The notes beneath the pieces are model-generated. The model did not search any database and was not told the DNA's origin. It saw nothing but the letters and a program-made list of their open reading frames with translations. DNA of 48,359 bases from a virus (taxonomy: Duplodnaviria; Caudoviricetes), in IMG/VR virus record IMGVR_UViG_3300020045_002918, positions 1 through 48,359 of that record. One strand, written 5' to 3'. Both the position numbers and the translations under genes were made by a program. This document shows positions 1 to 30,194 of the stretch, in pieces; position 1 is the stretch's first letter, and every line of letters begins with the position of its first letter.

Positions 1-121
1 TAAACACAATAATATCAATTGATGTTGGATTAGGTGGCGGAATAGCTGTTTTTTCAAATGGAAGAGCCAAAGCCGTTGCCATGCCTAAAAATGTTTATGA
101 AATGAGCCAGTATTTCGCTTA
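1..121. repeat. Terminal direct repeat (assembly overlap of a circular contig), left copy
   Basis: 1-121 is identical to 48239-48359 and falls inside the RuvC-like ORF, so the unit genome is 48238 bp. Confidence 0.95.
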
Positions 122-563
122 TTTGATTGACACTTATGATAATATTATTGTGTTTATTGAAAAGGTTCAAATGTACGGGGGCGGGGATGATGCGCCAGGC
201 AAAAAGTTTGCAATTAATAAGATGCTTGCGAACTACGAACAAGTTTTGACAGTTGTGAAATTGGCAGGATTGCGATATGTAGAAGTTTACCCGATTACAT
301 GGCAAACAACATTAGGTTTGAAATTATCAAAGGTTTACGGGAAAAGAGATGAAACCAAAACCGAAAGAAAAAAAAGGTACAAAGAATATGCGCAAGAGTG
401 CTTCCCAGAAATAAAAGTAAATTTGAAAACTTCAGATGCTTTGTGCTTAATTCAATTTGCTTTGATTAAAATTCAATGTGATGTAAGTTGGATAAGGGAA
501 CGTTTACAAAACAAACCGCCTGAATTATTATTTCAAAATAAATTAAAAAAAGTCGGGCACTAA
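1..563 (+). CDS. RuvC-like Holliday junction resolvase, 3' part (true start at 48229 across the junction)
   Basis: Joined N-terminus MKTLNTIISIDVGLGGGIAV has the RuvC IDxG motif; also VFIEKVQ, VYPITWQ and SDALCL motifs. Confidence 0.8.
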   Translation, partial: NTIISIDVGLGGGIAVFSNGRAKAVAMPKNVYEMSQYFAYLIDTYDNIIVFIEKVQMYGGGDDAPGKKFAINKMLANYEQVLTVVKLAGLRYVEVYPITWQTTLGLKLSKVYGKRDETKTERKKRYKEYAQECFPEIKVNLKTSDALCLIQFALIKIQCDVSWIRERLQNKPPELLFQNKLKKVGH

Positions 564-582
564 CTTTTTTTAACTATATTTG
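536..582 (+). promoter_or_regulatory. 47-bp early promoter/operator, copy 1
   Basis: AAATAAATY-AAAAAAAGT-N9-ACTTTTTTT-AACTATATTTG; ends in a Bacteroidota -7 box TAnnTTTG; four copies in the genome. Confidence 0.8.
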
Positions 583-609
583 CAACAACAAACAAATAAC
601 ATTGGGAAA

Positions 610-1047
610 ATGAATACTACTTTAAAAGAGAATGACGCTTTGCGAATGCTGGCTTCATCTGCAAAATTATCCATTTCAAACCTAGAGAAAAGGATATTAG
701 AGAAAATGGAATCTGAAAAGTTATTGACTGGAAATGTTGAAGACATTGGATTGTCCGTTTTGGAGATTATGAAATTAAACGGATATGATGCACAGGATGC
801 AATAAATATCCTTTTCCCTGAAGACTTCAAGAACCAAGAAATTATCCAGTTATTAGATGCCATTTTAATTTGGGGGGATGCTAAAAACAATCCATGTCCT
901 AAATGCGGATGCGAAGTTTTACACGAACCGCACTCGCACGGGAAACATTTTTGGGAAACATGGGAATGCGATAATTGTGATTTTTCAACTTCAAAAGAAC
1001 CTGATTGGGACACAATGAAAGGAGGGAAAGACTATGAGTGCAATTAA
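610..1047 (+). CDS. Hypothetical protein with C-terminal zinc ribbon
   Basis: CPKC...CDNC; ATG at 610 downstream of the promoter. Confidence 0.7.
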   Translation: MNTTLKENDALRMLASSAKLSISNLEKRILEKMESEKLLTGNVEDIGLSVLEIMKLNGYDAQDAINILFPEDFKNQEIIQLLDAILIWGDAKNNPCPKCGCEVLHEPHSHGKHFWETWECDNCDFSTSKEPDWDTMKGGKDYECN

Positions 1048-1225
1048 AATGAAGCCAAATTTTACAGTTGGTAAAGTAGGAACGAACAAGCCTAATTATA
1101 TTTTAGTGTTTAATTTTGATAATTTAAATTCAATCAGATTGGCGGGATTTGACAAAGAAGAATTTTATAAAGAATATAAAGATTTTCCAATTAAAGCAAT
1201 AGCAGGATTTAGAATAAAAAAATAA
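1034..1225 (+). CDS. Hypothetical protein; its stop codon forms the TAA of the first TAAC core
   Basis: 63 aa ORF overlapping the previous gene; TAA at 1223-1225. Confidence 0.65.
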   Translation: MSAIKMKPNFTVGKVGTNKPNYILVFNFDNLNSIRLAGFDKEEFYKEYKDFPIKAIAGFRIKK

Positions 1226-1345
1226 CGGGAAAGATTGTCGCTGGCTGGAAAAATAAGCCTGATAATTAAATTAATAACTAATTTTAAAAATACAAAACAA
1301 TGACAAAGTTAAAGACAGATGCCAGCTTGCTACAATCGTGTGTTA
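1223..1345. repeat. attC-like hairpin site A
   Basis: TAAC-gggaaa-GATTGT-cgct-GGCTGG ... CCAGCT-tgct-ACAATC-gtgt-GTTA; A-rich loop holds ATG 1300. Confidence 0.8.
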
Positions 1346-1839
1346 GCAAATCGGTTCCGAAAATTAAAACCTATGTACTAACCGTTTCAGAATTTTTCCC
1401 GAAAACTCACAATAAATCTGGATTTCCAACAGGTTTTATTGACAAAATCGGAAGTAAAATTAAAAAGCATACCATTCGTGGAAATTATCCTTTATGGGAA
1501 AAAAGAATTAAAGAAATACAAAAAGGAAATGCTGTTTTGTCAATTCGTTATTGGATTGGAAAACCTTATAATTCCAAACAAAAAGAAGTTTATGTTTTAG
1601 ATAAAAATTCTGGAATTGGAGTTCAAAAATTAACTTTTGAAGAGATGATTATGACTTGCGAAGATGTTTTAGAAACAAAATCAAAAGTAGGGATGCATAT
1701 TTGGAAACCAAATTTTTCAAATATTAAAACTCTGGCGAAAAATGACGGACTTGAACTTGAAGATTTTAAAGAATGGTTCAAAGGTTATGATTTAAGCGAA
1801 CCAATGGCAATAGTTCATTTTACCGCTGAACGTTATTAA
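1300..1839 (+). CDS. Cassette 1: ASCH/PUA-like domain protein
   Basis: KKHTIR and LAKNDGL..EDFKEWF resemble ASCH-family motifs; starts inside site A. Confidence 0.6.
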   Translation: MTKLKTDASLLQSCVSKSVPKIKTYVLTVSEFFPKTHNKSGFPTGFIDKIGSKIKKHTIRGNYPLWEKRIKEIQKGNAVLSIRYWIGKPYNSKQKEVYVLDKNSGIGVQKLTFEEMIMTCEDVLETKSKVGMHIWKPNFSNIKTLAKNDGLELEDFKEWFKGYDLSEPMAIVHFTAERY

Positions 1840-1847
1840 CTGTTTGC

Positions 1848-1976
1848 TAACGTTTGTGGCTTTGCGAGGATTTTCGGTTAAGGATGCGTAATATTTCAGT
1901 TGAGCCAAAAACACACCAAGTACAAACTAAAAATTAAATTAAACCTAAAGCCGAAAATCTCGCAAAACTACTGTTA
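1848..1976. repeat. attC-like hairpin site B
   Basis: TAAC...TTTGCGAG-g-ATTTTCGG ... CCGAAAAT-CTCGCAAA...GTTA, with one bulged G. Confidence 0.85.
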
Positions 1977-2011
1977 TGGTGCGTTGTGGATGGCTGAAAA
2001 ATAAACATCTT

Positions 2012-2317
2012 ATGAAAACTACTTATTTTAAATTTATTGCTCAAAAAACATTTGAAGGAAAAACAATATTAGTTGCTGTTATTCCTGATGATATGTTAGG
2101 AAATGATTTGCCATCTATTTATGAAGGACAAGCGTTCTTAATGCCTGCAACTATCTACACAGGAACTTACCCACAGATAAAGATTAATACCGATACTATC
2201 GTAGATAAAACAGAAGATTTTAAAGGTTTCGGAATTGCGGGCATAATCACAGAAGCCGAATGGTATATCAAAAATGATGTCAAAGAGGATGTTATGGGAA
2301 TTTCTTTGGAAAGATAA
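2012..2317 (+). CDS. Cassette 2: hypothetical protein
   Basis: ORF fills the space between sites B and C; ATG 2012 (alternative 1976). Confidence 0.7.
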   Translation: MKTTYFKFIAQKTFEGKTILVAVIPDDMLGNDLPSIYEGQAFLMPATIYTGTYPQIKINTDTIVDKTEDFKGFGIAGIITEAEWYIKNDVKEDVMGISLER

Positions 2318-2332
2318 ACGAGCAATGCACCA

Positions 2333-2459
2333 TAACGGACGGCGTGTATGGGAGGTTGCGCCGATTCAAGACTAAACTTCCAAATATTACTAATCATTAA
2401 ATTCAAAAACTATGAAATCAAACACAAAACTATTGCGCAATCTCTTATACACGATGTTA
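2333..2459. repeat. attC-like hairpin site C
   Basis: TAAC-ggacgg-CGTGTATGGGAGGTTGCGC ... GCGCAATCTCTTATACACG-at-GTTA; loop holds ATG 2412. Confidence 0.85.
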
Positions 2460-2711
2460 TGCCTTGTTTTTCTTTCGCTAACGTCTTGTGCAGATGTATC
2501 GCCTCACGTTCAGGATTGCATTACAAGTTCTCCTTATGGATTTTGGGGAGGTTTATGGCACGGAATTATTGCTCCATTTTCTTTTTTTGGAAGCTTATTC
2601 ACGGACGATATTGCTCTCTATGCTTATAATAATAACGGGGGTTGGTATAACTTCGGTTTTGTTCTTGGAGCAGGGATTTTATTTTCTAGTTCGTCTAGTT
2701 CTTCAAAATAA
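2412..2711 (+). CDS. Cassette 3: small membrane lipoprotein
   Basis: Signal peptide with lipobox LTSC, then hydrophobic GFWGGLWHGIIAPF and WYNFGFVLG segments. Confidence 0.7.
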   Translation: MKSNTKLLRNLLYTMLCLVFLSLTSCADVSPHVQDCITSSPYGFWGGLWHGIIAPFSFFGSLFTDDIALYAYNNNGGWYNFGFVLGAGILFSSSSSSSK

Positions 2712-2715
2712 GGCA

Positions 2716-2842
2716 TAACGGTTCGCCTGTATGGTAAGTGGCTTGTAAATAAGCCACAAACATTCAATAATTACTAATATTAACAAACACAAAACTATGT
2801 TTAAATTAAGCCAAATAAAGCCATTTATTATACAGGCTGTTA
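2716..2842. repeat. attC-like hairpin site D
   Basis: TAAC-ggttc-GCCTGTATGGTAAGTGGCTT ... AAGCCATTTATTATACAGGC-t-GTTA; loop holds ATG 2797. Confidence 0.85.
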
Positions 2843-3096
2843 GTAGCTGTTTTTCTTCTAAACCACCAAAATTACATTGGTACGATTGCCAATTTTATTA
2901 TAAGAAAAAAGGAGCTGATATGTATTGTGTAGATTTTAATTTACAAGTTGGTTTTGTAAATCAGAAAGACATTCTAAACGGCAGAAAAGTTAAAAAACTA
3001 ACAGGATATAGGGTTGAAGAATTTCCTAAAAAAGTTCTTGATAATGGATTGTTCTATTTTAAGATAAATGCTTATTTAGGGCAGTTCTCAAAATAG
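2797..3096 (+). CDS. Cassette 4: hypothetical protein
   Basis: Starts in site D; TAG lies in the cassette's right inverted end. Confidence 0.7.
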   Translation: MFKLSQIKPFIIQAVSSCFSSKPPKLHWYDCQFYYKKKGADMYCVDFNLQVGFVNQKDILNGRKVKKLTGYRVEEFPKKVLDNGLFYFKINAYLGQFSK

Positions 3097-3100
3097 CTAC

Positions 3101-3185
3101 TAACGGCGGATGCTACAAGCTGTATGCCAGCACAAAATACGAACTGAAAAACTAAAGCCGTGCATATAGCTTGTAGCATATGTTA
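3101..3185. repeat. attC-like hairpin site E (shortest, 85 bp)
   Basis: TAAC-ggcgg-ATGCTACAAGCTGTATGC ... GCATATAGCTTGTAGCAT-at-GTTA. Confidence 0.85.
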
Positions 3186-3220
3186 GCAGGCGTTGTGGGT
3201 TATTAACCAATAAATTTGTT

Positions 3221-3832
3221 ATGAAACTAGATAAAAAACTATGTGAAATTAAAATTTGTAAATTCAAAGATATACGTCATATTTTTGAAGAGTTCCATTA
3301 TAAAAAAGGTAATATGGGTGGGGGAATAAGTATTTGTTTTGGAATGTTTATGGATGGAAATTTAGTAGGCGGAAGCGTACTAGGAAAGCCTAGACACGAA
3401 AAGAAATATAAAAATTGTATTGATATTAGAAGAATGGCTTGTTTAGATAGTTCTCCTTGTAATAGTGAAAGTTATTTTTTAGGACAAATTATAAAATACA
3501 TTACTTGTAATACTGATTATAATTTTGTTTTATCTTATAGCGATATGACTGTAGGACATAACGGGACAATTTACAAGGCATCAAACTTTAAAGAAATAGG
3601 ATTTACCACACCGACAAAATTTGTAGATTGGAATGGTAAAATATACCACCCAAGAAGTTTGACTATTGACAGGGATTATTCATACAAAATGAGGGAAGCC
3701 GTGAAAACAGGCGAAGCAATAATAAAAACAGGGCTTCCAAAGAGAATATGGATATATGAGATAAATAAAAAACTCAGAAACAAAAAATGTATCATGAGAG
3801 ATATACACGCATTGCAAGAAACGTTATTTTGA
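3221..3832 (+). CDS. Cassette 5: Mom-like (GNAT-fold) DNA adenine-modification protein
   Basis: FHY, IRRMACLD..PCNSESYFLG, LSYSD..GHNGTIYKASNF match motifs of the phage Mu Mom family. Confidence 0.75.
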   Translation: MKLDKKLCEIKICKFKDIRHIFEEFHYKKGNMGGGISICFGMFMDGNLVGGSVLGKPRHEKKYKNCIDIRRMACLDSSPCNSESYFLGQIIKYITCNTDYNFVLSYSDMTVGHNGTIYKASNFKEIGFTTPTKFVDWNGKIYHPRSLTIDRDYSYKMREAVKTGEAIIKTGLPKRIWIYEINKKLRNKKCIMRDIHALQETLF

Positions 3833-3854
3833 AAACTAAACGAGCAATGCCTGC

Positions 3855-3978
3855 TAACGCTCTGTCGCTTGTAGCAGGACGTTGATTCAAGACCAATTAT
3901 ACAAGCAAAAAACAATTTATAAATTAAACCCGACCACTCAAACACAAACTAATGCAGTCTTGTTACAAGCGACTGTTA
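3855..3978. repeat. attC-like hairpin site F
   Basis: TAAC-gctct-GTCGCTTGTAGCAGGAC ... GTCTTGTTACAAGCGAC-t-GTTA. Confidence 0.85.
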
Positions 3979-4012
3979 TGGTGCGTTGCGGGTCATTAAA
4001 CGAAAATATGTT

Positions 4013-4357
4013 ATGAAAGTAATATCAAGTAAACCAAAGAAACAGCGAATTTTAAAAAGTGTATATCATAGGATGGAATTTGGAATACATAAAGGTAAAA
4101 AATTAAAAAGACCTTTTAGTATTTCTCCAATTGGAAGTAATTGGTGGTTTTGTTTAAAAGATGGACAATGGAGGCAAGGATATAATGGTACAGGAGGAAT
4201 GACTTCAAATTATTATGCGATGTCACACGATGGATTCAACGATGCTTATTCATTAAAAGCAGTTATTAGATTAATTAGAAAATGGGATATACCTAAAGGA
4301 ACAAAATTTACAGCAAGTTTGCCATTTATAGGTTATGACTTCACTATTACAAAATAG
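4013..4357 (+). CDS. Cassette 6: basic hypothetical protein
   Basis: ORF between sites F and G; ATG 4013. Confidence 0.7.
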   Translation: MKVISSKPKKQRILKSVYHRMEFGIHKGKKLKRPFSISPIGSNWWFCLKDGQWRQGYNGTGGMTSNYYAMSHDGFNDAYSLKAVIRLIRKWDIPKGTKFTASLPFIGYDFTITK

Positions 4358-4388
4358 TTATTAGGAATGATAAACGAGCAATGCACCA

Positions 4389-4514
4389 TAACGTATGGTG
4401 ATTGTCGCTGTTGCCAAAAAACAAACCGATTCATTAAATTAAAAAACAATAATTAAGATGCAAACAAAACTTCAAATTCAAGACCAATCTGGCAATAGCT
4501 ACAATCACGTGTTA
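4389..4514. repeat. attC-like hairpin site G
   Basis: TAAC-gtatg-GTGATTGTcGCTGTTGCCA ... TGGCAATAGCtACAATCAC-gt-GTTA; loop holds ATG 4458; stem resembles site A. Confidence 0.85.
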
Positions 4515-5177
4515 CCGCTTGTTGTTCTGGTCGGTTGCGAGGAATCACAAGCGGTTACAATCGAATTAAGAAAATTAGGTCACGAAGCATATAGTTGTGA
4601 TTTATTGCCGTGTTCTGGAGGGCATTCAGAATGGCATATTCAAGGCGATTGTTTAAAAGAAGCTTATAGTGGTAAATACGATATGGGTATATTTTTCCCG
4701 CCTTGTACTGATTTAGCTGTTAGCGGATCAAGATGGTTTAAGGATAAAATTGCAGATGGTAGCCAGCAGAAAAGTGTGGATTTTTTTATGGACTTAGTAA
4801 ACGCTCCAATTGATATAATAGCAGTTGAAAATCCAATAGGAATTATGAGTGGTAAATATCGAAAGCCTGACCAAATAATACAGCCTTGGCAATTTGGAGA
4901 TAAAGCGCAAAAAAGCACTTGTTTATGGTTAAAGAATTTACCAAAATTACAATCTACTGATATTGTAGAAAAAGGAGAATTTATAACAATGAGCAATGGA
5001 AAAAAAATGGCAAAATGGTATAATGATTCCGCTTTAGAAAGTATGAAGATAAAATGTCCTATTGAACGAAAAGCGTTAAGACAGAAGTTACGAAGCAAAA
5101 CTTTTTTCGGAATTGCCAAAGCTATGGCGCAACAATGGGCTGGAGAAGTTCTTGTTACCGAAGAAGTTGTGCAATAA
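4458..5177 (+). CDS. Cassette 7: phage C5-cytosine DNA methyltransferase-like protein
   Basis: VLVGCEES, SCDL, FFPPCT (catalytic PC), VENP, RSKTF..IAKAMAQQW. Confidence 0.75.
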   Translation: MQTKLQIQDQSGNSYNHVLPLVVLVGCEESQAVTIELRKLGHEAYSCDLLPCSGGHSEWHIQGDCLKEAYSGKYDMGIFFPPCTDLAVSGSRWFKDKIADGSQQKSVDFFMDLVNAPIDIIAVENPIGIMSGKYRKPDQIIQPWQFGDKAQKSTCLWLKNLPKLQSTDIVEKGEFITMSNGKKMAKWYNDSALESMKIKCPIERKALRQKLRSKTFFGIAKAMAQQWAGEVLVTEEVVQ

Positions 5178-5205
5178 GCGGTAACTATTATATATAAAAA
5201 CCATC
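5172..5205 (-). other. Putative attI-like primary recombination site
   Basis: TAAC core at 5182-5185 closes cassette 7 but is followed by TATTATATATAAAAACC with no hairpin; 52 bp upstream of the recombinase ATG. Confidence 0.55.
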
Positions 5206-5237
5206 TGTAAACGCCAATAAACTTAATACCTTACACT

Positions 5238-6041
5238 ATGAATATCGGAAAGTATGTGGAATTGTATTCCGAAGATTTAAAGCTAAAAAATTATTCTGAA
5301 AATACAATTTCGAATTATTCTAATCAAGTAAAATTGTTTTTGGAGTATTTTAATAAAGTAGCCACAAAGCCTTCTGAAATATCAGAAAAGCAGATAAAAA
5401 ATTGGTTATTATTGGCTAATTCAATAAACGGCAGAAAACACAGGATTTCTGCCGTAAAATTGTTTTATAAACTTACAGGAAAACAACCATTAAAATTCAA
5501 ACATATTGAATATCCCAGATCAGAAAGAAAGCTTCCGCAAATAATTGAAAAGGAATTTTTATTGGATGCTATTTCGAAAATAGAAAACACCAAACACAAA
5601 GCGATTATTTCTTTAGCTTATTCAACAGGAATGAGAGTTTCAGAAGTTTGTAATTTAAAAATAGCAGACATTGACAGTAAAAGAATGATTATTACTATCA
5701 GACAAAGTAAAGGAAGGAAAGATAGGATTGTGGGATTATCAGAAAAAATACTTGAAATTTTAAGAATTTATTTTACAGAATATAAGCCAAAAGAATATTT
5801 ATTCAATGGTCAATTTGATTTGAAATATTCATCAACAAGCTGTAATCAGATAGTGAAAAAATATTTAGGTAAAGAATATCATTTTCATTTACTAAGACAT
5901 TCAAACGCTACAGCATTATTAGAAGCGGGGACGGATTTAAGAATTATTCAAAAACATTTAGGTCATGCAAATTGCAAAACGACTGAAATTTATACACACG
6001 TAAGCACTAATGTTTTATCAAAAATGGCATTGCCAATTTAA
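5238..6041 (+). CDS. Tyrosine recombinase (XerD/IntI-like with SAM-like N-domain, no IntI insertion)
   Basis: Catalytic set: GMRVSE, KGRKDR, HLLRH, HLGH, TEIYTH; N-terminal LKNYSENTISNY. Confidence 0.95.
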   Translation: MNIGKYVELYSEDLKLKNYSENTISNYSNQVKLFLEYFNKVATKPSEISEKQIKNWLLLANSINGRKHRISAVKLFYKLTGKQPLKFKHIEYPRSERKLPQIIEKEFLLDAISKIENTKHKAIISLAYSTGMRVSEVCNLKIADIDSKRMIITIRQSKGRKDRIVGLSEKILEILRIYFTEYKPKEYLFNGQFDLKYSSTSCNQIVKKYLGKEYHFHLLRHSNATALLEAGTDLRIIQKHLGHANCKTTEIYTHVSTNVLSKMALPI

Positions 6042-6061
6042 TTAATTTAATATTTTAAACA

Positions 6062-6691
6062 ATGGAGAGATCACAAGAAGAACAAAGAACGAGATTAATG
6101 GACTTAAAAGATTTTGACTTGAAGAAAGTTAAGATTGCGGGAAAATTTGTTGATGTATCACATCATGAAAACGGAAATGATGCGGGGGATGTAGAGAAAA
6201 AAGGACAAACAGTTCCGCACCCTGATTTAAAAAAATCATTGGATGCGCTTGCGCCTTTTATGGCAAGGCATTTGGGATTATTGGAAGGGGTTGAATTAGC
6301 TATAAATTTATATCAAGGCGTTGACTTGGATAAAATGGCTAAATTAGTAGAATTGAAGAAAACAATAATTTCCAGAATGAATGTTGGCGGGTTGACTTTT
6401 GTTGGTTCTAGCGATAAATACGGGGTTATTATTACGGGATCAGTTACGACACCAGAAAGCGGATCAGTAGGATTGGTAACCCCGAAAATTAGTTTTGAAG
6501 AAGATGTTTTGGGATATGAAAAAGAGTGTTTTGAACTTTGCAAAAAAGTAATTGAAGAGGTACACGCCTATAGATTTTGCAATAAAAAAGCACAACAAGA
6601 TATTTTCCAACAAGCGGAAGAATTTGACAAAGAAGAGGCAACGCAAAAGCCTAAAAAAGCATCAAAAAAGGATCAGCAAGAAGAGATTTAA
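6062..6691 (+). CDS. Hypothetical protein
   Basis: 209 aa ORF in the operon. Confidence 0.75.
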   Translation: MERSQEEQRTRLMDLKDFDLKKVKIAGKFVDVSHHENGNDAGDVEKKGQTVPHPDLKKSLDALAPFMARHLGLLEGVELAINLYQGVDLDKMAKLVELKKTIISRMNVGGLTFVGSSDKYGVIITGSVTTPESGSVGLVTPKISFEEDVLGYEKECFELCKKVIEEVHAYRFCNKKAQQDIFQQAEEFDKEEATQKPKKASKKDQQEEI

Positions 6692-6730: not shown

Positions 6731-7183
6731 ATGAAAGTAAAGACACATAAGAACTGCAAGAATCCAGATTGCGGAAAAGAATTCAAGCTTTATAATACAA
6801 CTCAAAAATTTTGTTCTGCTCAATGTGTAAGGGCTTGCGAAAAAGAAAAAAAGCCAAAACAAATTTATATAATCCCGCAACAGTCTAAAAAAAGAATTGT
6901 TGAAAATGGAAAATACACAGCTAGAAGAATTATATTTCTTGGAAAGCCAGAGAATAAATTTTGTTTCATCAAAGGATGCGGAAAAAGAGCAGATACAATT
7001 GAACATACAATGGGGCGCAAAGGCTATGCAGACGAAGAAGCAAGAATGGAGGGGATAACATTATATTTAGATGAAAGATTTTGGAAGCCATGTTGTGGAG
7101 ATCACAACAGAGAATTAGAAAACAACCCAGAATTATCCAAAGAGTATCAACTTTCAAAAATACATGGAGGAAAAAAAGAATGA
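6731..7183 (+). CDS. Zinc-binding HNH/NinG-like nuclease
   Basis: CKNPDC..FCSAQC; CFIKGC..TIEH..PCCGDHN. Confidence 0.55.
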   Translation: MKVKTHKNCKNPDCGKEFKLYNTTQKFCSAQCVRACEKEKKPKQIYIIPQQSKKRIVENGKYTARRIIFLGKPENKFCFIKGCGKRADTIEHTMGRKGYADEEARMEGITLYLDERFWKPCCGDHNRELENNPELSKEYQLSKIHGGKKE

Positions 7184-7893
7184 AAATATTAATTGGATGT
7201 GAAGAAAGTCAAGCGGTAACAATTGCATTCAGGAAATTAGGACATGAGGCGTTTAGTTGTGATTTACAGGATTGCACGGGGGGGCGTCCTGAATGGCATA
7301 TAAAGAAAGATATTTTTGAAGTAATAGAAGAACAACAATGGGACATGGCAATTTTCTTTCCGCCTTGCACTTATTTAACGGTAACGGCTAATAAATGGCT
7401 TAAAGATCAACCGCCTTTAAAATCTGGTGCATTAGTAGGCAAAGAAAGAAGAGAAGCCAGAAAAAAGGCAATTGATTTTTTTATAAAATTGCACAAATGC
7501 AATATTAAAAGAATTGCAATTGAAAACCCAATAGGTTGTATTAATACGGAATACATGAAGCCAACCCAGATAATACAACCTTATTATTTTGGAGATGAAG
7601 CAAGGAAAACGACTTGTTTATGGTTGAAAAATTTACCGCCTTTATATCATAATAAAACTCCAAATTTATTTGATGAAAATATATCGCATGTAGGTAAAGG
7701 AGAATTAACAGAATGGATAAGTAAGGAAGGAAGGGCGAAAAGTCAGCCTAAATGGTATGCAAACGCAAAGCATGGAAAAAAATTTGGGGAACGATCCAAA
7801 GAAAGATCAAAAACGTTCCCGGCTATTGCGAAAGCAATGGCGATTCAATGGAGCGAATTTTTATTGAGTGAATCAAATGGCAAAAAAAGTTAG
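7180..7893 (+). CDS. C5-cytosine DNA methyltransferase-like protein (paralog of cassette 7)
   Basis: MKILIGCEESQAVT, FFPPCT, IENP, RSKTF; ATGA overlap with the upstream gene. Confidence 0.75.
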   Translation: MKILIGCEESQAVTIAFRKLGHEAFSCDLQDCTGGRPEWHIKKDIFEVIEEQQWDMAIFFPPCTYLTVTANKWLKDQPPLKSGALVGKERREARKKAIDFFIKLHKCNIKRIAIENPIGCINTEYMKPTQIIQPYYFGDEARKTTCLWLKNLPPLYHNKTPNLFDENISHVGKGELTEWISKEGRAKSQPKWYANAKHGKKFGERSKERSKTFPAIAKAMAIQWSEFLLSESNGKKS

Positions 7894-8091: not shown

Positions 8092-8099
8092 ATTTTATA

Positions 8100-8146
8100 A
8101 AATAAATCAAAAAAAGTTGCGTAAGTACTTTTTTTAACTATATTTG
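8100..8146 (+). promoter_or_regulatory. 47-bp early promoter/operator, copy 2
   Basis: Same consensus as 536-582. Confidence 0.8.
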
Positions 8147-8170
8147 TAATCACAAACAAACATTGAGAGC

Positions 8171-14541: not shown

Positions 14542-16032
14542 ATGGCTACACGGGAAGAACTATTCAAGGAATATAAAAAGCAATTCGAGGCGCATGGTAA
14601 GTTGGCAAAACAAAAGCTTACGCACTTTGCGACTTTTGTAAATAAGGATGTTGACATTGAATGGTTTCACAAAATAGTTTATGACAATCTGGATTTATGG
14701 ATTGATGGAAAAATAAAGAAGCTTGCAATATTTGTACCGCCTCAACACGGCAAAAGCTTCATGTCTTCGATTAATACACCCGCAAAAATACTTGGAAAGA
14801 AGCCCAAAGCAAAAATTGTTGTTGCCTCTTATTCAGACAAGTTGGCATCGAAATTTAATAGGGGATGCCAGGATATTATAGACAGTTACGAATTTAAATC
14901 AATTTACCCAAACGTTATTCTTCCAGCAAAAGGAGTTGAAACAACAAACGAATTAAGAAATAATACATATTTCGAAACAGTAAAACATAAGGGGTTTTAT
15001 AAGGCAGTATCGATTGGCGGGGCAATGACGGGGGATTCAATTGACTATGGAATCATTGATGATCCAATAAAAGACCGTAAGCAAGCCAATTCGAAAACTT
15101 ACCGTGATACGCTTTGGGATTGGTACAATGATGTATTCTTAACCCGTATGCATAATGATTCGAGCCAATTAATGCTGTTCACAAGATGGCATGAAGATGA
15201 TTTGGCGGGAAGGCTTTTCAACCCTAAATCAGAATTTTATAATGAAGAAGAAGCGAATGAGTGGACTGTTTTATGTTTTCAAGCATTAAAAGAAGAGAAA
15301 CTTCCCTTCGCAAACGCAGTAAAATACGATGATCCAAGAAAATTGGATGAAGCTTTATGGGAATCGAAACACTCCGCAGAAAAGCATAAAAAGCAAAGGA
15401 TTAGAAATCCACAAACATTTGCTTCATTAGGACAACAACGCCCGTCCCCAAAATCAGGAAACAAGATCAAGCGTGAATGGTTTAGGATTATGAAACCAAG
15501 TGAATTGCCGTTCAATCCTGAAACAGTTAAAAAAGATTTCTTTATTGATGGAGCATTCACGGAGAAAGTACAGAATGACGAAAGCGCACAATTGGTTTGT
15601 TCGTTTTACAAAGGGGATATTTATATTTTCAATTGTCATGGTGTTAGAAAAGAATTAAACGAATACTTAAAATATATTGTCCCGTTTCTTAAATCATCGG
15701 GATATAAAGGGAATTCGAGTGTTTATATAGAAATGAAAGCTTCAGGATATTCTTTTTATTCTATGCTTAGATCGCCAGAATATGGAAAGTTCAATTGTAG
15801 AAAGATAAGCAACAAAACCGTTGCAGATGGAAAAATGACCCGTGTTGAATCGAGCCAACCCGCTTTGGCTTCTGGAAAAGTGATTCTAGTTGCGGGAGGT
15901 TGGAACGAATCATTTATCGATCAATGCGCATCATTCCCGAATGACACGCATGATGATATGGTGGATGTTTTAACCTATGCGGTACATGAATATATAATCA
16001 ATGAGCAGGAAGTAAGTGTAACTTATAGCTAA
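14542..16032 (+). CDS. terL: Terminase large subunit
   Basis: Walker A PPQHGKS, Walker B GIIDDP, TRWHEDDL, nuclease motif FPNDTHDDMVD. Confidence 0.95.
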   Translation: MATREELFKEYKKQFEAHGKLAKQKLTHFATFVNKDVDIEWFHKIVYDNLDLWIDGKIKKLAIFVPPQHGKSFMSSINTPAKILGKKPKAKIVVASYSDKLASKFNRGCQDIIDSYEFKSIYPNVILPAKGVETTNELRNNTYFETVKHKGFYKAVSIGGAMTGDSIDYGIIDDPIKDRKQANSKTYRDTLWDWYNDVFLTRMHNDSSQLMLFTRWHEDDLAGRLFNPKSEFYNEEEANEWTVLCFQALKEEKLPFANAVKYDDPRKLDEALWESKHSAEKHKKQRIRNPQTFASLGQQRPSPKSGNKIKREWFRIMKPSELPFNPETVKKDFFIDGAFTEKVQNDESAQLVCSFYKGDIYIFNCHGVRKELNEYLKYIVPFLKSSGYKGNSSVYIEMKASGYSFYSMLRSPEYGKFNCRKISNKTVADGKMTRVESSQPALASGKVILVAGGWNESFIDQCASFPNDTHDDMVDVLTYAVHEYIINEQEVSVTYS

Positions 16033-16040
16033 AAAATAAA

Positions 16041-16087
16041 AAATAAATCAAAAAAAGTTGTTTGATAACTTTTTTTAACTATATTTG
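16041..16087 (+). promoter_or_regulatory. 47-bp early promoter/operator, copy 3
   Basis: Same consensus as 536-582. Confidence 0.8.
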
Positions 16088-29900: not shown

Positions 29901-30194
29901 AATTTAGGAAAGGATAACTTTTATAAAATGAAAGACATTGCGGGACAAGGTAAAGTGGATTCAAATTTCTTCAGCAGACAAAGAAAACAATTTACTTCAA
30001 TTCAAAGGAGATCGCCAAAACAGCATAACAGCGAAGACGGTTGGAAAAAGGTTCGTGAAGCAATAGAAAACAAACCAGTTCCGAACTATGAAGTTGCAAG
30101 AATAGCAAATGGAACAATGGAACTTGTAGAAACTATTTTGACCAAAAACGGAGCAAAAAGGAATCATTATAAAACTAAAAAACCAAGATTATAA
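26928..30194 (+). CDS. Tape measure protein
   Basis: 1088 aa helical protein with QIARELPAF..SNNIPILVD motif and a hydrophobic segment. Confidence 0.85.
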   Translation: MENVIFKYSDFFEDDGGMARVKSEFVKLGDELIAEAKRVKSELNKNLSFDNPESASAYEKQVEKMVEVNKQYEKSLKDLNAVAESHQKEIKEAIAVEIALEKAKQESIKTTRQEIQAEGDLAKAITAENNSIKSGIALQEAQRRQREASEKSIKKEQDAYGRLSAELNTLFRATASLAVEMYELEQAGLKTSPAYARLESQFNTFQARTTKLDGALKTIDASLGRHQRKVGEYERGYSGLNNAVGQIARELPAFTFSLQTGLLGVSNNIPILVDEINRLKVANADLLKQGKPTQSILQGLVGAVFSWNTAISIGIFLITKYAKEIQEWTMALLGGSSALDELNDRQKEYNNQKLEGRKNAQGDIIELRKYLAVVKDQKVSDEERNIALKALRDQYPFYFKNLTDAQILAGKSIIAEMELTKALEKRKEIEKKTELNVTNKQKLIDIDLEIEKERELLENRRANFKELSSIQGINPNITLQASKRLRESELILNKLLKERTAINNISLKNDRDIFKLKKETIALEYKEEKQRKDKEKQLQQINSVDYLANEFELKKKVLENNIKINEEIFNSDKYTAETRVEAQKQMASEMVALAELERNEHLRVLKNAYKKESTEMLKDSEGKKTIHKYTAKGLLELEKQYGFNKEIIQKEYNEKLRQAQEKAEGAFYLETRQRQIDNLKYLQKTLSMNADVYKAYSRQISIIQEDINNVTDLSKVLDARDKLLMSSDELKRTEQLTKDLDNELEKRGALNLRQLEKFQKRQEHIQKNSETQRKLQRTYAIAEEQKSFEKGTTQFVALETERQNILTSLENDAIKERLQNQKDNYEQWKAFADDLNQLIEKVLDRMMEITQRRVDQETQAVESQKKSLETQERRAELGLENTLALEQKALAERESMLIKQQKKEERLRKIQSLWTSYSSYADKDPDTAIAKALRDFAILETISATFGDGGIPNDKLPADGIFRGQSHKGNNGGIPILVEGREGIFSAREMDNLGKDNFYKMKDIAGQGKVDSNFFSRQRKQFTSIQRRSPKQHNSEDGWKKVREAIENKPVPNYEVARIANGTMELVETILTKNGAKRNHYKTKKPRL

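Follow-up and report, generated by a model that had tools for sequence, protein, structure and literature searches.

The array and its relatives

The window analysed here is a whole phage contig of 48,359 nucleotides (nt), IMG/VR record IMGVR_UViG_3300020045_002918, in which terminase, portal and virion genes are present. Seven hairpins bounded by AAC and GTT and seven cassettes with one open reading frame (ORF) each were found in it, all upstream of a tyrosine recombinase gene (Table 1). The seven nt after each GTT are complementary to the seven nt before the next AAC, at 6/7 positions in cassette 1 and at 7/7 in the other six. No further hairpin of this type was detected on either strand of the whole window, and Rfam gave no match at E values up to 0.1 in positions 1–6500. 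Judged from sequence, the array is quite probably an integron-like row in which each hairpin precedes, and moves with, its own gene, and in which the loop of four of the seven hairpins acts as a ribosome entry site. Because the closest genomic relatives of the recombinase are in Flavobacterium, with a 94% match in F. urumqiense, the phage host is likely a flavobacterium. The sequencing runs listed included no RNA run with this sequence, and the small shares are no guide to habitat.

Table 1. Features of the cassette array and its surroundings. Negative stop positions are counted back from the end of the AAC core.
Feature	Position	Strand	Remarks
Hairpin site 0, terminal site of the array	1224..1344	+	loop holds gene 1 ATG; no T at -11
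Gene 1, phrog_8581 family	1300..1839	+	14 codons before GTT; free homologs start at about residue 22
Hairpin site 1	1849..1975	+	no in-frame loop start
Gene 2	2012..2317	+	own start after GTT; ATG at 1976 also in frame
Hairpin site 2	2334..2458	+	loop holds gene 3 ATG
Gene 3, predicted small lipoprotein, phrog_30702	2412..2711	+	first 14 codons of the likely signal peptide inside hairpin; stop at -11
Hairpin site 3	2717..2841	+	loop holds gene 4 ATG
Gene 4, no family match	2797..3096	+	found only in arrays; stop at -11
Hairpin site 4, short type, 83 nt	3102..3184	+	
Gene 5, Mom-like DNA modification protein	3221..3832	+	PF25680, phrog_1384; own start
Hairpin site 5	3856..3977	+	
Gene 6, no family match	4013..4357	+	own start
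Hairpin site 6	4390..4513	+	loop holds gene 7 ATG
Gene 7, DNA methyltransferase, phrog_757	4458..5177	+	17 codons before GTT; stop at -11
End of cassette 7 (AAC 5183-5185), then attI-like docking stretch without hairpin	5175..5237	+	52 nt before recombinase ATG
Tyrosine recombinase, 267 amino acids, Xer-like, PF00589	5238..6041	+	no IntI insertion
Free methyltransferase paralog of gene 7, outside the array, for comparison only	7180..7893	+	starts MKILIGCEES

To survey the site family, a stem detector was run on the window, on the best 80 of 116 viral loci and on three annotated phage loci. From 277 sequences came 259 cassettes, 244 of them unique and 215 of these with a single ORF; the other 29 of the 244 were left out of the start and stop counts, and window cassette 1 stands outside the 215 because site 0 has no T at -11. 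The held-out set came from 80 metagenome loci and comprised 66 new cassettes, after 10 of 76 had been dropped; two annotated-phage loci were left out of one analysis step. Because a later version of the detector required T at -11, T at -1 and A at -7, base frequencies at these positions are quoted from the earlier set only. The records of Freya, Ingeline, Leef and phi17:2 had few or no detected sites and gave no usable cassette gain or loss.

The detector found 217 sites in 419 kilobases (kb) upstream of the recombinase and none in 621 kb downstream. Adjacent sites had complementary ends (at least 6/7) in 134 of 158 pairs, compared with 2.5% of random pairs and 7 of 217 hairpins whose own two flanks were compared. 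Of the 55 last cassettes, 43 ended 32–53 nt before the recombinase without a hairpin after them, and a conserved TA-rich stretch followed the AAC; among the other 12 last cassettes, several preceded short hairpins that the detector missed. The window's docking stretch, 5186–5237, doubles as the 5' leader of the recombinase, and the spacing of 52 nt between AAC and the recombinase ATG falls within the range seen for loop ATGs after AAC (mostly 43–80 nt).

The hairpin and the gene it belongs to

Fourteen cross-locus pairs of cassettes had bodies 81–96% alike, nine duplicate pairs having been dropped from this comparison of bodies and hairpins. None of the 14 shared the 60 nt after AAC (48–62% identity; background median 49), and the upstream hairpin was kept at 80–96% in eight. 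All five pairs with bodies 92–96% alike kept the upstream hairpin (94–96%) and diverged after AAC. A 1798-nt public contig matches the window at 2716–3112 only, that is, over one hairpin and gene 4. Within a cassette, the bases at -4 and +3 covary (227 A-T, 16 G-C and 1 G-T, n = 244), and the exchange point therefore lies inside AAC. These sequence comparisons show a mobile unit that consists of the hairpin and the downstream gene, with exchange inside AAC. Since the hairpin moves with the downstream gene, a loop ATG would belong to its own cassette, and it is this that gives meaning to the word "portable" in the earlier note's description of the site as a portable translation start.

The motif order GTT-gene-AAC-hairpin is that of integrons, and in canonical integron polarity each hairpin would belong to the upstream cassette, the N-terminus of a protein would be set by its neighbour, and loop fusions would be accidents of cassette order. 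The different upstream hairpin (62–68%) in six of the 14 related-body pairs fits that polarity. It is at odds with the lack of shared sequence after AAC in every one of the 14 pairs, and with the last cassette, which has no hairpin downstream. Further, folding favours the coding strand in 196 of 244 sites (the other strand in 39), as it favours the recombined bottom strand in attC according to passages of PMC5027507. Canonical polarity, already disfavoured, is thus very improbable here.

Loop ATGs, N-terminal tags and stop codons

The loop ATGs at 1300, 2412, 2797 and 4458 lie 42, 44, 42 and 53 nt, respectively, before the G of the GTT at 1342, 2456, 2839 and 4511. As the earlier note had claimed, all four are inside hairpins, and the frames of genes 1, 3, 4 and 7 run on through the right arm and GTT core with no stop found. 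Gene 7 indeed has no other early ATG, the next in-frame one being at +172, and its free paralog starts MKILIGCEES at 7180. We consider it rather likely that the loop ATGs are true translation starts. Among the 215 cassettes, 76 opened at a loop ATG, 125 had an ATG of their own at +10 to +65 and 14 had neither; loop starts were nearly confined to long hairpins (72/154 long, 4/61 short). When the body was open at GTT and had no ATG up to +65, a loop ATG was present in 42 of 45 cassettes, and in 8 of 8 in the held-out set; the off-frame control gave 22 of 282 frames. A fixed reading frame through GTT was rejected, as the 76 divided into 43, 27 and 6 among the three frames.

Initiation in Bacteroidota uses no Shine-Dalgarno sequence and is marked by adenines at -3, -6, -12 and -13 in an unstructured context, with A-12/A-13 promoting initiation in F. 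johnsoniae, as set out in parts of PMC6847099. The loop ATGs have both features. Adenines occupied these four positions in 61, 63, 83 and 70% of the 76 loop starts and in 36, 52, 48 and 36% of off-frame controls, and in the predicted mRNA fold the median unpaired probability was 0.71 around the loop ATG versus 0.08 in the right arm. An initiation matrix trained on own-start cassettes scored in-frame loop ATGs above off-frame ones (p = 3.6e-7). What sets it apart from the known initiation region is its location in a recombination-hairpin loop. The earlier note's proposal of a portable Bacteroidota-style start is therefore upheld for initiation context, unpaired loop and movement with the gene, and fails as a general rule for the site, given that 125 of 215 cassettes start on their own after GTT.

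Translation might instead begin at or after the core (GTG 4509, ATG 2454, ATT 1363 or near-cognates), the loop ATGs being incidental or serving only to recruit ribosomes, in the manner of ORF-11 of attI1 and the short ORFs of attC. Short ORFs of this kind aid reinitiation in class 1 integrons according to passages of PMC8876359. Candidates for such downstream starts do exist: in frame are a second ATG at 2454 in gene 3 and, in gene 7, a GTG at 4509 and a CTG at 4527, the ATT at 1363 of gene 1 is close to the position of the free homologs' ATG, and a core xTG codon is a possible start in 27 frame-1 cassettes. The loop frames, however, are fused to the body without a stop and therefore cannot terminate and reinitiate. 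The loop ATGs of genes 3 and 7 score +6.9 and +1.9, compared with -4.7 and -6.2 at the core codons, which are in the paired arm. When each of the 76 cassettes was represented by its best loop ATG, the loop scored better than the alternative start in 58, had no rival in 10 and scored worse in eight. In L101 and L102, which have no ATG at -2, the frame is kept nonetheless. A start at or after the core is thus unlikely.

Homologs bear on the same question. For gene 7, 61 of 80 matches (the best 80 of 129) begin at residues 21–24, typically at a methionine of their own; among the matches listed, the gene 7 tag is carried only by two identical loci, where the hairpin in front is 96% identical, and three are cassettes in which a methionine of their own follows GTT. 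Gene 1 has 17 matches, of which 11 begin at residues 21–25. Non-cassette homologs of these two genes thus lack the N-terminal extension, in keeping with the earlier note. The check that it proposed, whether similarity begins just after the GTT core, gave an offset of 3–8 codons from GTT, the 11 nt next to the core being part of the site. Homologs of gene 4 were found only in arrays (5/5). Among gene 3 homologs, 111 of 112 parsed (of 120 listed, gene 3 included) have 16–32 residues before the lipobox cysteine, the lipobox being recognized by a pattern that we take to be the usual one. The loop start of gene 3 gives 25 such residues, and the ATG at 2454 gives 11 with no basic residue. The gene 3 tag likely supplies the front of a lipoprotein signal peptide. 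Small lipoproteins with signal peptides like the hairpin-encoded tags were also seen at 1413 in L347 and in proteins P0009, P0014 and P0028.

Several observations weigh against loop starts in portable hairpins. The alternative start outscores the loop ATG in the eight cassettes mentioned, 32 of 42 ATG-less loop-start bodies carry a near-cognate alternative (GTG or TTG at -3 to +65) or an ATG at -2, and the A-richness found throughout the loops inflates initiation scores. Of the 98 long-hairpin cassettes that have an ATG of their own at +10 to +65, 22 contain a loop ATG as well, so that the start-class calls are partly ambiguous. Gene 4 has no free homolog, and many gene 3 homologs may themselves be cassette-borne. 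The linkage of hairpin and body is not absolute, as the six related-body pairs with different hairpins indicate. The tie to the recombinase is one of co-location, and sites of this kind are present in Polaribacter phage P12002L, whose genome has no matching recombinase. The pairs are, moreover, non-independent, coming from few cassette families and in many cases from loci in related samples.

The tags themselves can be recognized. A profile of the 14 residues around GTT, used leave-one-out with related tags kept in, recovered 57 of 69 tags and matched two of 1398 background ORFs. One of the two is a cassette of an intact inverted array in L058 and the other has no core. The suggestion that tags could mark cassette-derived genes elsewhere thus held for cassette proteins and went no further: no relic tagged gene outside an array was found among the 1398 ORFs, which come only from DNA downstream of the recombinase in the loci and include spurious ones. 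The L058 array (2396–4017) lies on the opposite strand, downstream of a recombinase match that covers residues 1–154 only.

The stop codons of cassettes 3, 4 and 7 begin at 2709, 3094 and 5175, exactly 11 nt from the end of the AAC core, as the earlier note had observed. In the other window cassettes (1, 2, 5 and 6) they are at -15, -22, -29 and -38, and a stop fixed at -11 was rejected (10/215; held-out 0/66). The commonest positions among the 215 were -16 (60), -4 (38), -14 (19), -17 (11) and -11 (10), and the 66 held-out stops gave 15 at -16, six at -4 and none at -11. The position is therefore a minor one that borrows an invariant T of the site, T being present at -11 in 99% of 202 cassette ends, stop or not, where it faces G (77%) at +10; cassettes 2, 5 and 6 have this T and no stop there. 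The window's 3/7 exceeds the family's 10/215 (binomial p ~0.003, post hoc), and -11 stops were commoner in loop-start (8/76) than in own-start (2/125) cassettes (p = 0.007), four of the eight being one methyltransferase family. Of 61 cassettes with a frame open as far as -16 and a stop triplet at that position, 60 use it to end the gene. Overall, 163 of 215 stops lay within 20 nt of the cassette end and only two lay past AAC. In classical cassettes, stops inside the inverse core are common. The crowding of stops at the cassette end here probably reflects trimming of the body to fit the site, with use of the T's of the site flank at -16, -4 and sometimes -11.

Probable exchange of hairpins at GTT and comparison with integrons

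When gene 4 was compared with L196, and gene 1 with L084, identity climbed sharply at GTT; in L084 the gene 1 body follows another hairpin and another tag, with the frame unchanged. Gene 3 and L101 have much of the loop in common, and not the arms. Of 113 hairpin pairs at least 75% alike, 104 stood on unrelated bodies, and 96 of these 104 agreed in start type. A 1098-nt contig matches hairpin 6 alone, at 4388–4515. Near-identical hairpins with 1-nt indels after the ATG that fit the frame of each body were found in L028/L067, L011/L203 and L024/window site 2. A class of short hairpins (45–57 nt; L063, L074, L078, L065 and L280) is 92–100% alike across loci and precedes unrelated bodies. Re-pairing may have come about through the recombinase acting on the other strand, through cassette creation or through homologous exchange. 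Tentatively, and at something short of an even chance, we suggest that genes are built at two joints: an Xer-sized recombinase would move hairpin-plus-gene cassettes at AAC and graft hairpins onto new bodies at GTT, the hairpins forming a library of portable start modules that activate start-less fragments and give them new N-termini, including signal peptides.

Loop starts might also be real and yet a neutral by-product, if an A-rich loop held an in-frame ATG by chance and the native start then decayed, with no selection for start modules. This reading has the same start sites as the one preferred here and differs on selection only. It agrees with the same arm being read in different frames in different cassettes, which suggests that tag sequence is weakly constrained, with a body frame already open back to -42 in 29 of 76 own-start long-hairpin cassettes, and with the gene 1 ATT near the homologs' ATG. 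It accounts poorly for the way start type follows hairpin family in the 104 pairs with unrelated bodies, for the bodies of genes 7 and 4, which are too tight for a native leader, and for the frame-keeping 1-nt indels. We regard neutrality as a possible but doubtful account.

On the preferred reading, the cut made by the 267-amino-acid recombinase would fall within AAC on the folded coding strand, just as IntI cuts the bottom strand of attC, and the enzyme would insert cassettes at the docking stretch 5183–5237. Ribosomes would initiate at the ATG of the A-rich unpaired loop, so that in four of seven cassettes the protein would begin with 14–17 residues read from loop and right arm. More rarely, GTT would be the point at which a hairpin acquires a new body, and a body with no start would survive only if in frame with the loop ATG or made so by a 1-nt indel. 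The tag would be mostly a start device whose sequence is tolerated.

As in the integron attC sites described in portions of PMC5027507 and PMC4889954, the hairpins are bounded by AAC and GTT, the cassette ends are complementary (core and inverse core), each cassette has one gene, and one strand folds better. The better-folding strand of attC is the one cut in AAC, in the passages of PMC5027507 on this point, and here too exchange would be within AAC on that strand. Read from the partner of the folding strand, a docking site at the array end lies beside a divergent tyrosine recombinase, again as in integrons. In contrast to attC, which stands at the 3' end of its gene with the non-coding strand recombined, the coding strand folds better here, so the hairpin precedes its gene and moves with it. 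Two to four extra unpaired bases adjoin AAC on the same arm (offsets 5/1, 4/1 and 5/2 dominate; single bulges deeper in the stem are outside this tally), whereas the extrahelical bases of wild-type attC, as there described, are on the arm opposite AAC. The enzyme differs as well. The window recombinase matched TIGR02249 at 143 bits, in a split match, against a cut-off of 265; its residues 177–212 span IntI4 179–262, making it about 48 amino acids shorter across the insertion region, and the IntI-specific insertion, essential in IntI according to the relevant part of PMC8138268, is absent. The system would work like an integron with reversed cassette polarity and falls outside integrons on enzyme and polarity.

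In class 1 integrons, ORF-11, ORF-17 and ORF-18 of attI1 and short attC ORFs act by reinitiation, in the passages of PMC8876359 devoted to them. They resemble the phage loops in that a recombination site carries a start that aids start-less cassettes, and ORF-11 crosses the crossover point. They differ in that they belong to the platform or the upstream cassette, usually stop and reinitiate, and depend on position, whereas the phage loop frames are fused in frame and move with their own gene. A cluster of attC sites lacking integron-integrases (CALIN) was reported in Polaribacter phage P12002L, its site being read as ordinary attC (PMC9892861, in part). P12002L_attC1 (30009–30055, minus strand) fits the present site family and, like site 6, precedes a methyltransferase; of the six sites in that report, it alone failed to recombine with IntI1. 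The CALIN passages there make no mention of polarity, loop starts or a non-IntI recombinase. No description of reversed cassettes or loop starts was found in the literature searched, which left subscription journals outside.

The usual view is that expression of integron cassettes depends on the platform, and attC hairpins are a known barrier to translation. Reversed polarity means that a site can carry its gene's start to any landing place. If the reading is correct, one 120-nt element would be recombination substrate, ribosome entry and protein N-terminus together, and folded-strand recombination would work without the IntI insertion. Re-pairing of hairpin and body at GTT would be a testable route to how cassettes are made, and a site-derived N-terminus, by which cassettes could be identified, would be present on many annotated proteins of Bacteroidota phages.

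Same-family hairpins also lie downstream of a 43%-identical recombinase in L223 (10064–14653; Croceivirga radicis) and L225 (12334–15900; a Lishizhenia metagenome-assembled genome). There the folding strand is antisense to the genes, which is canonical integron polarity, and the genes have their own starts. These arrays are likely a chromosomal counterpart of the phage system.

Among the window's cargo, DNA-modification proteins make up two of seven cassettes (Mom-like 3221–3832, methyltransferase 4458–5177) and are likely anti-restriction cargo. Cassettes 2, 5 and 6 hold unrelated own-start genes with a common 3' end sequence (2302–2342, 3824–3864 and 4358–4398) and a similar 5' leader, which suggests a reused cassette frame. 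The array genes point towards the docking site, so a cassette promoter (Pc) there could not transcribe them. TAnnTTTG is the promoter consensus; such motifs occur upstream of the array at 575 and 1111, and hairpin-borne promoters were rejected, the motif being present in only 8 of 244 hairpins. Repeated elements composed of an inverted repeat plus TAACTATATTTG, resembling phage promoters, lie at 535–596, 8099–8160 and about 16019–16060.

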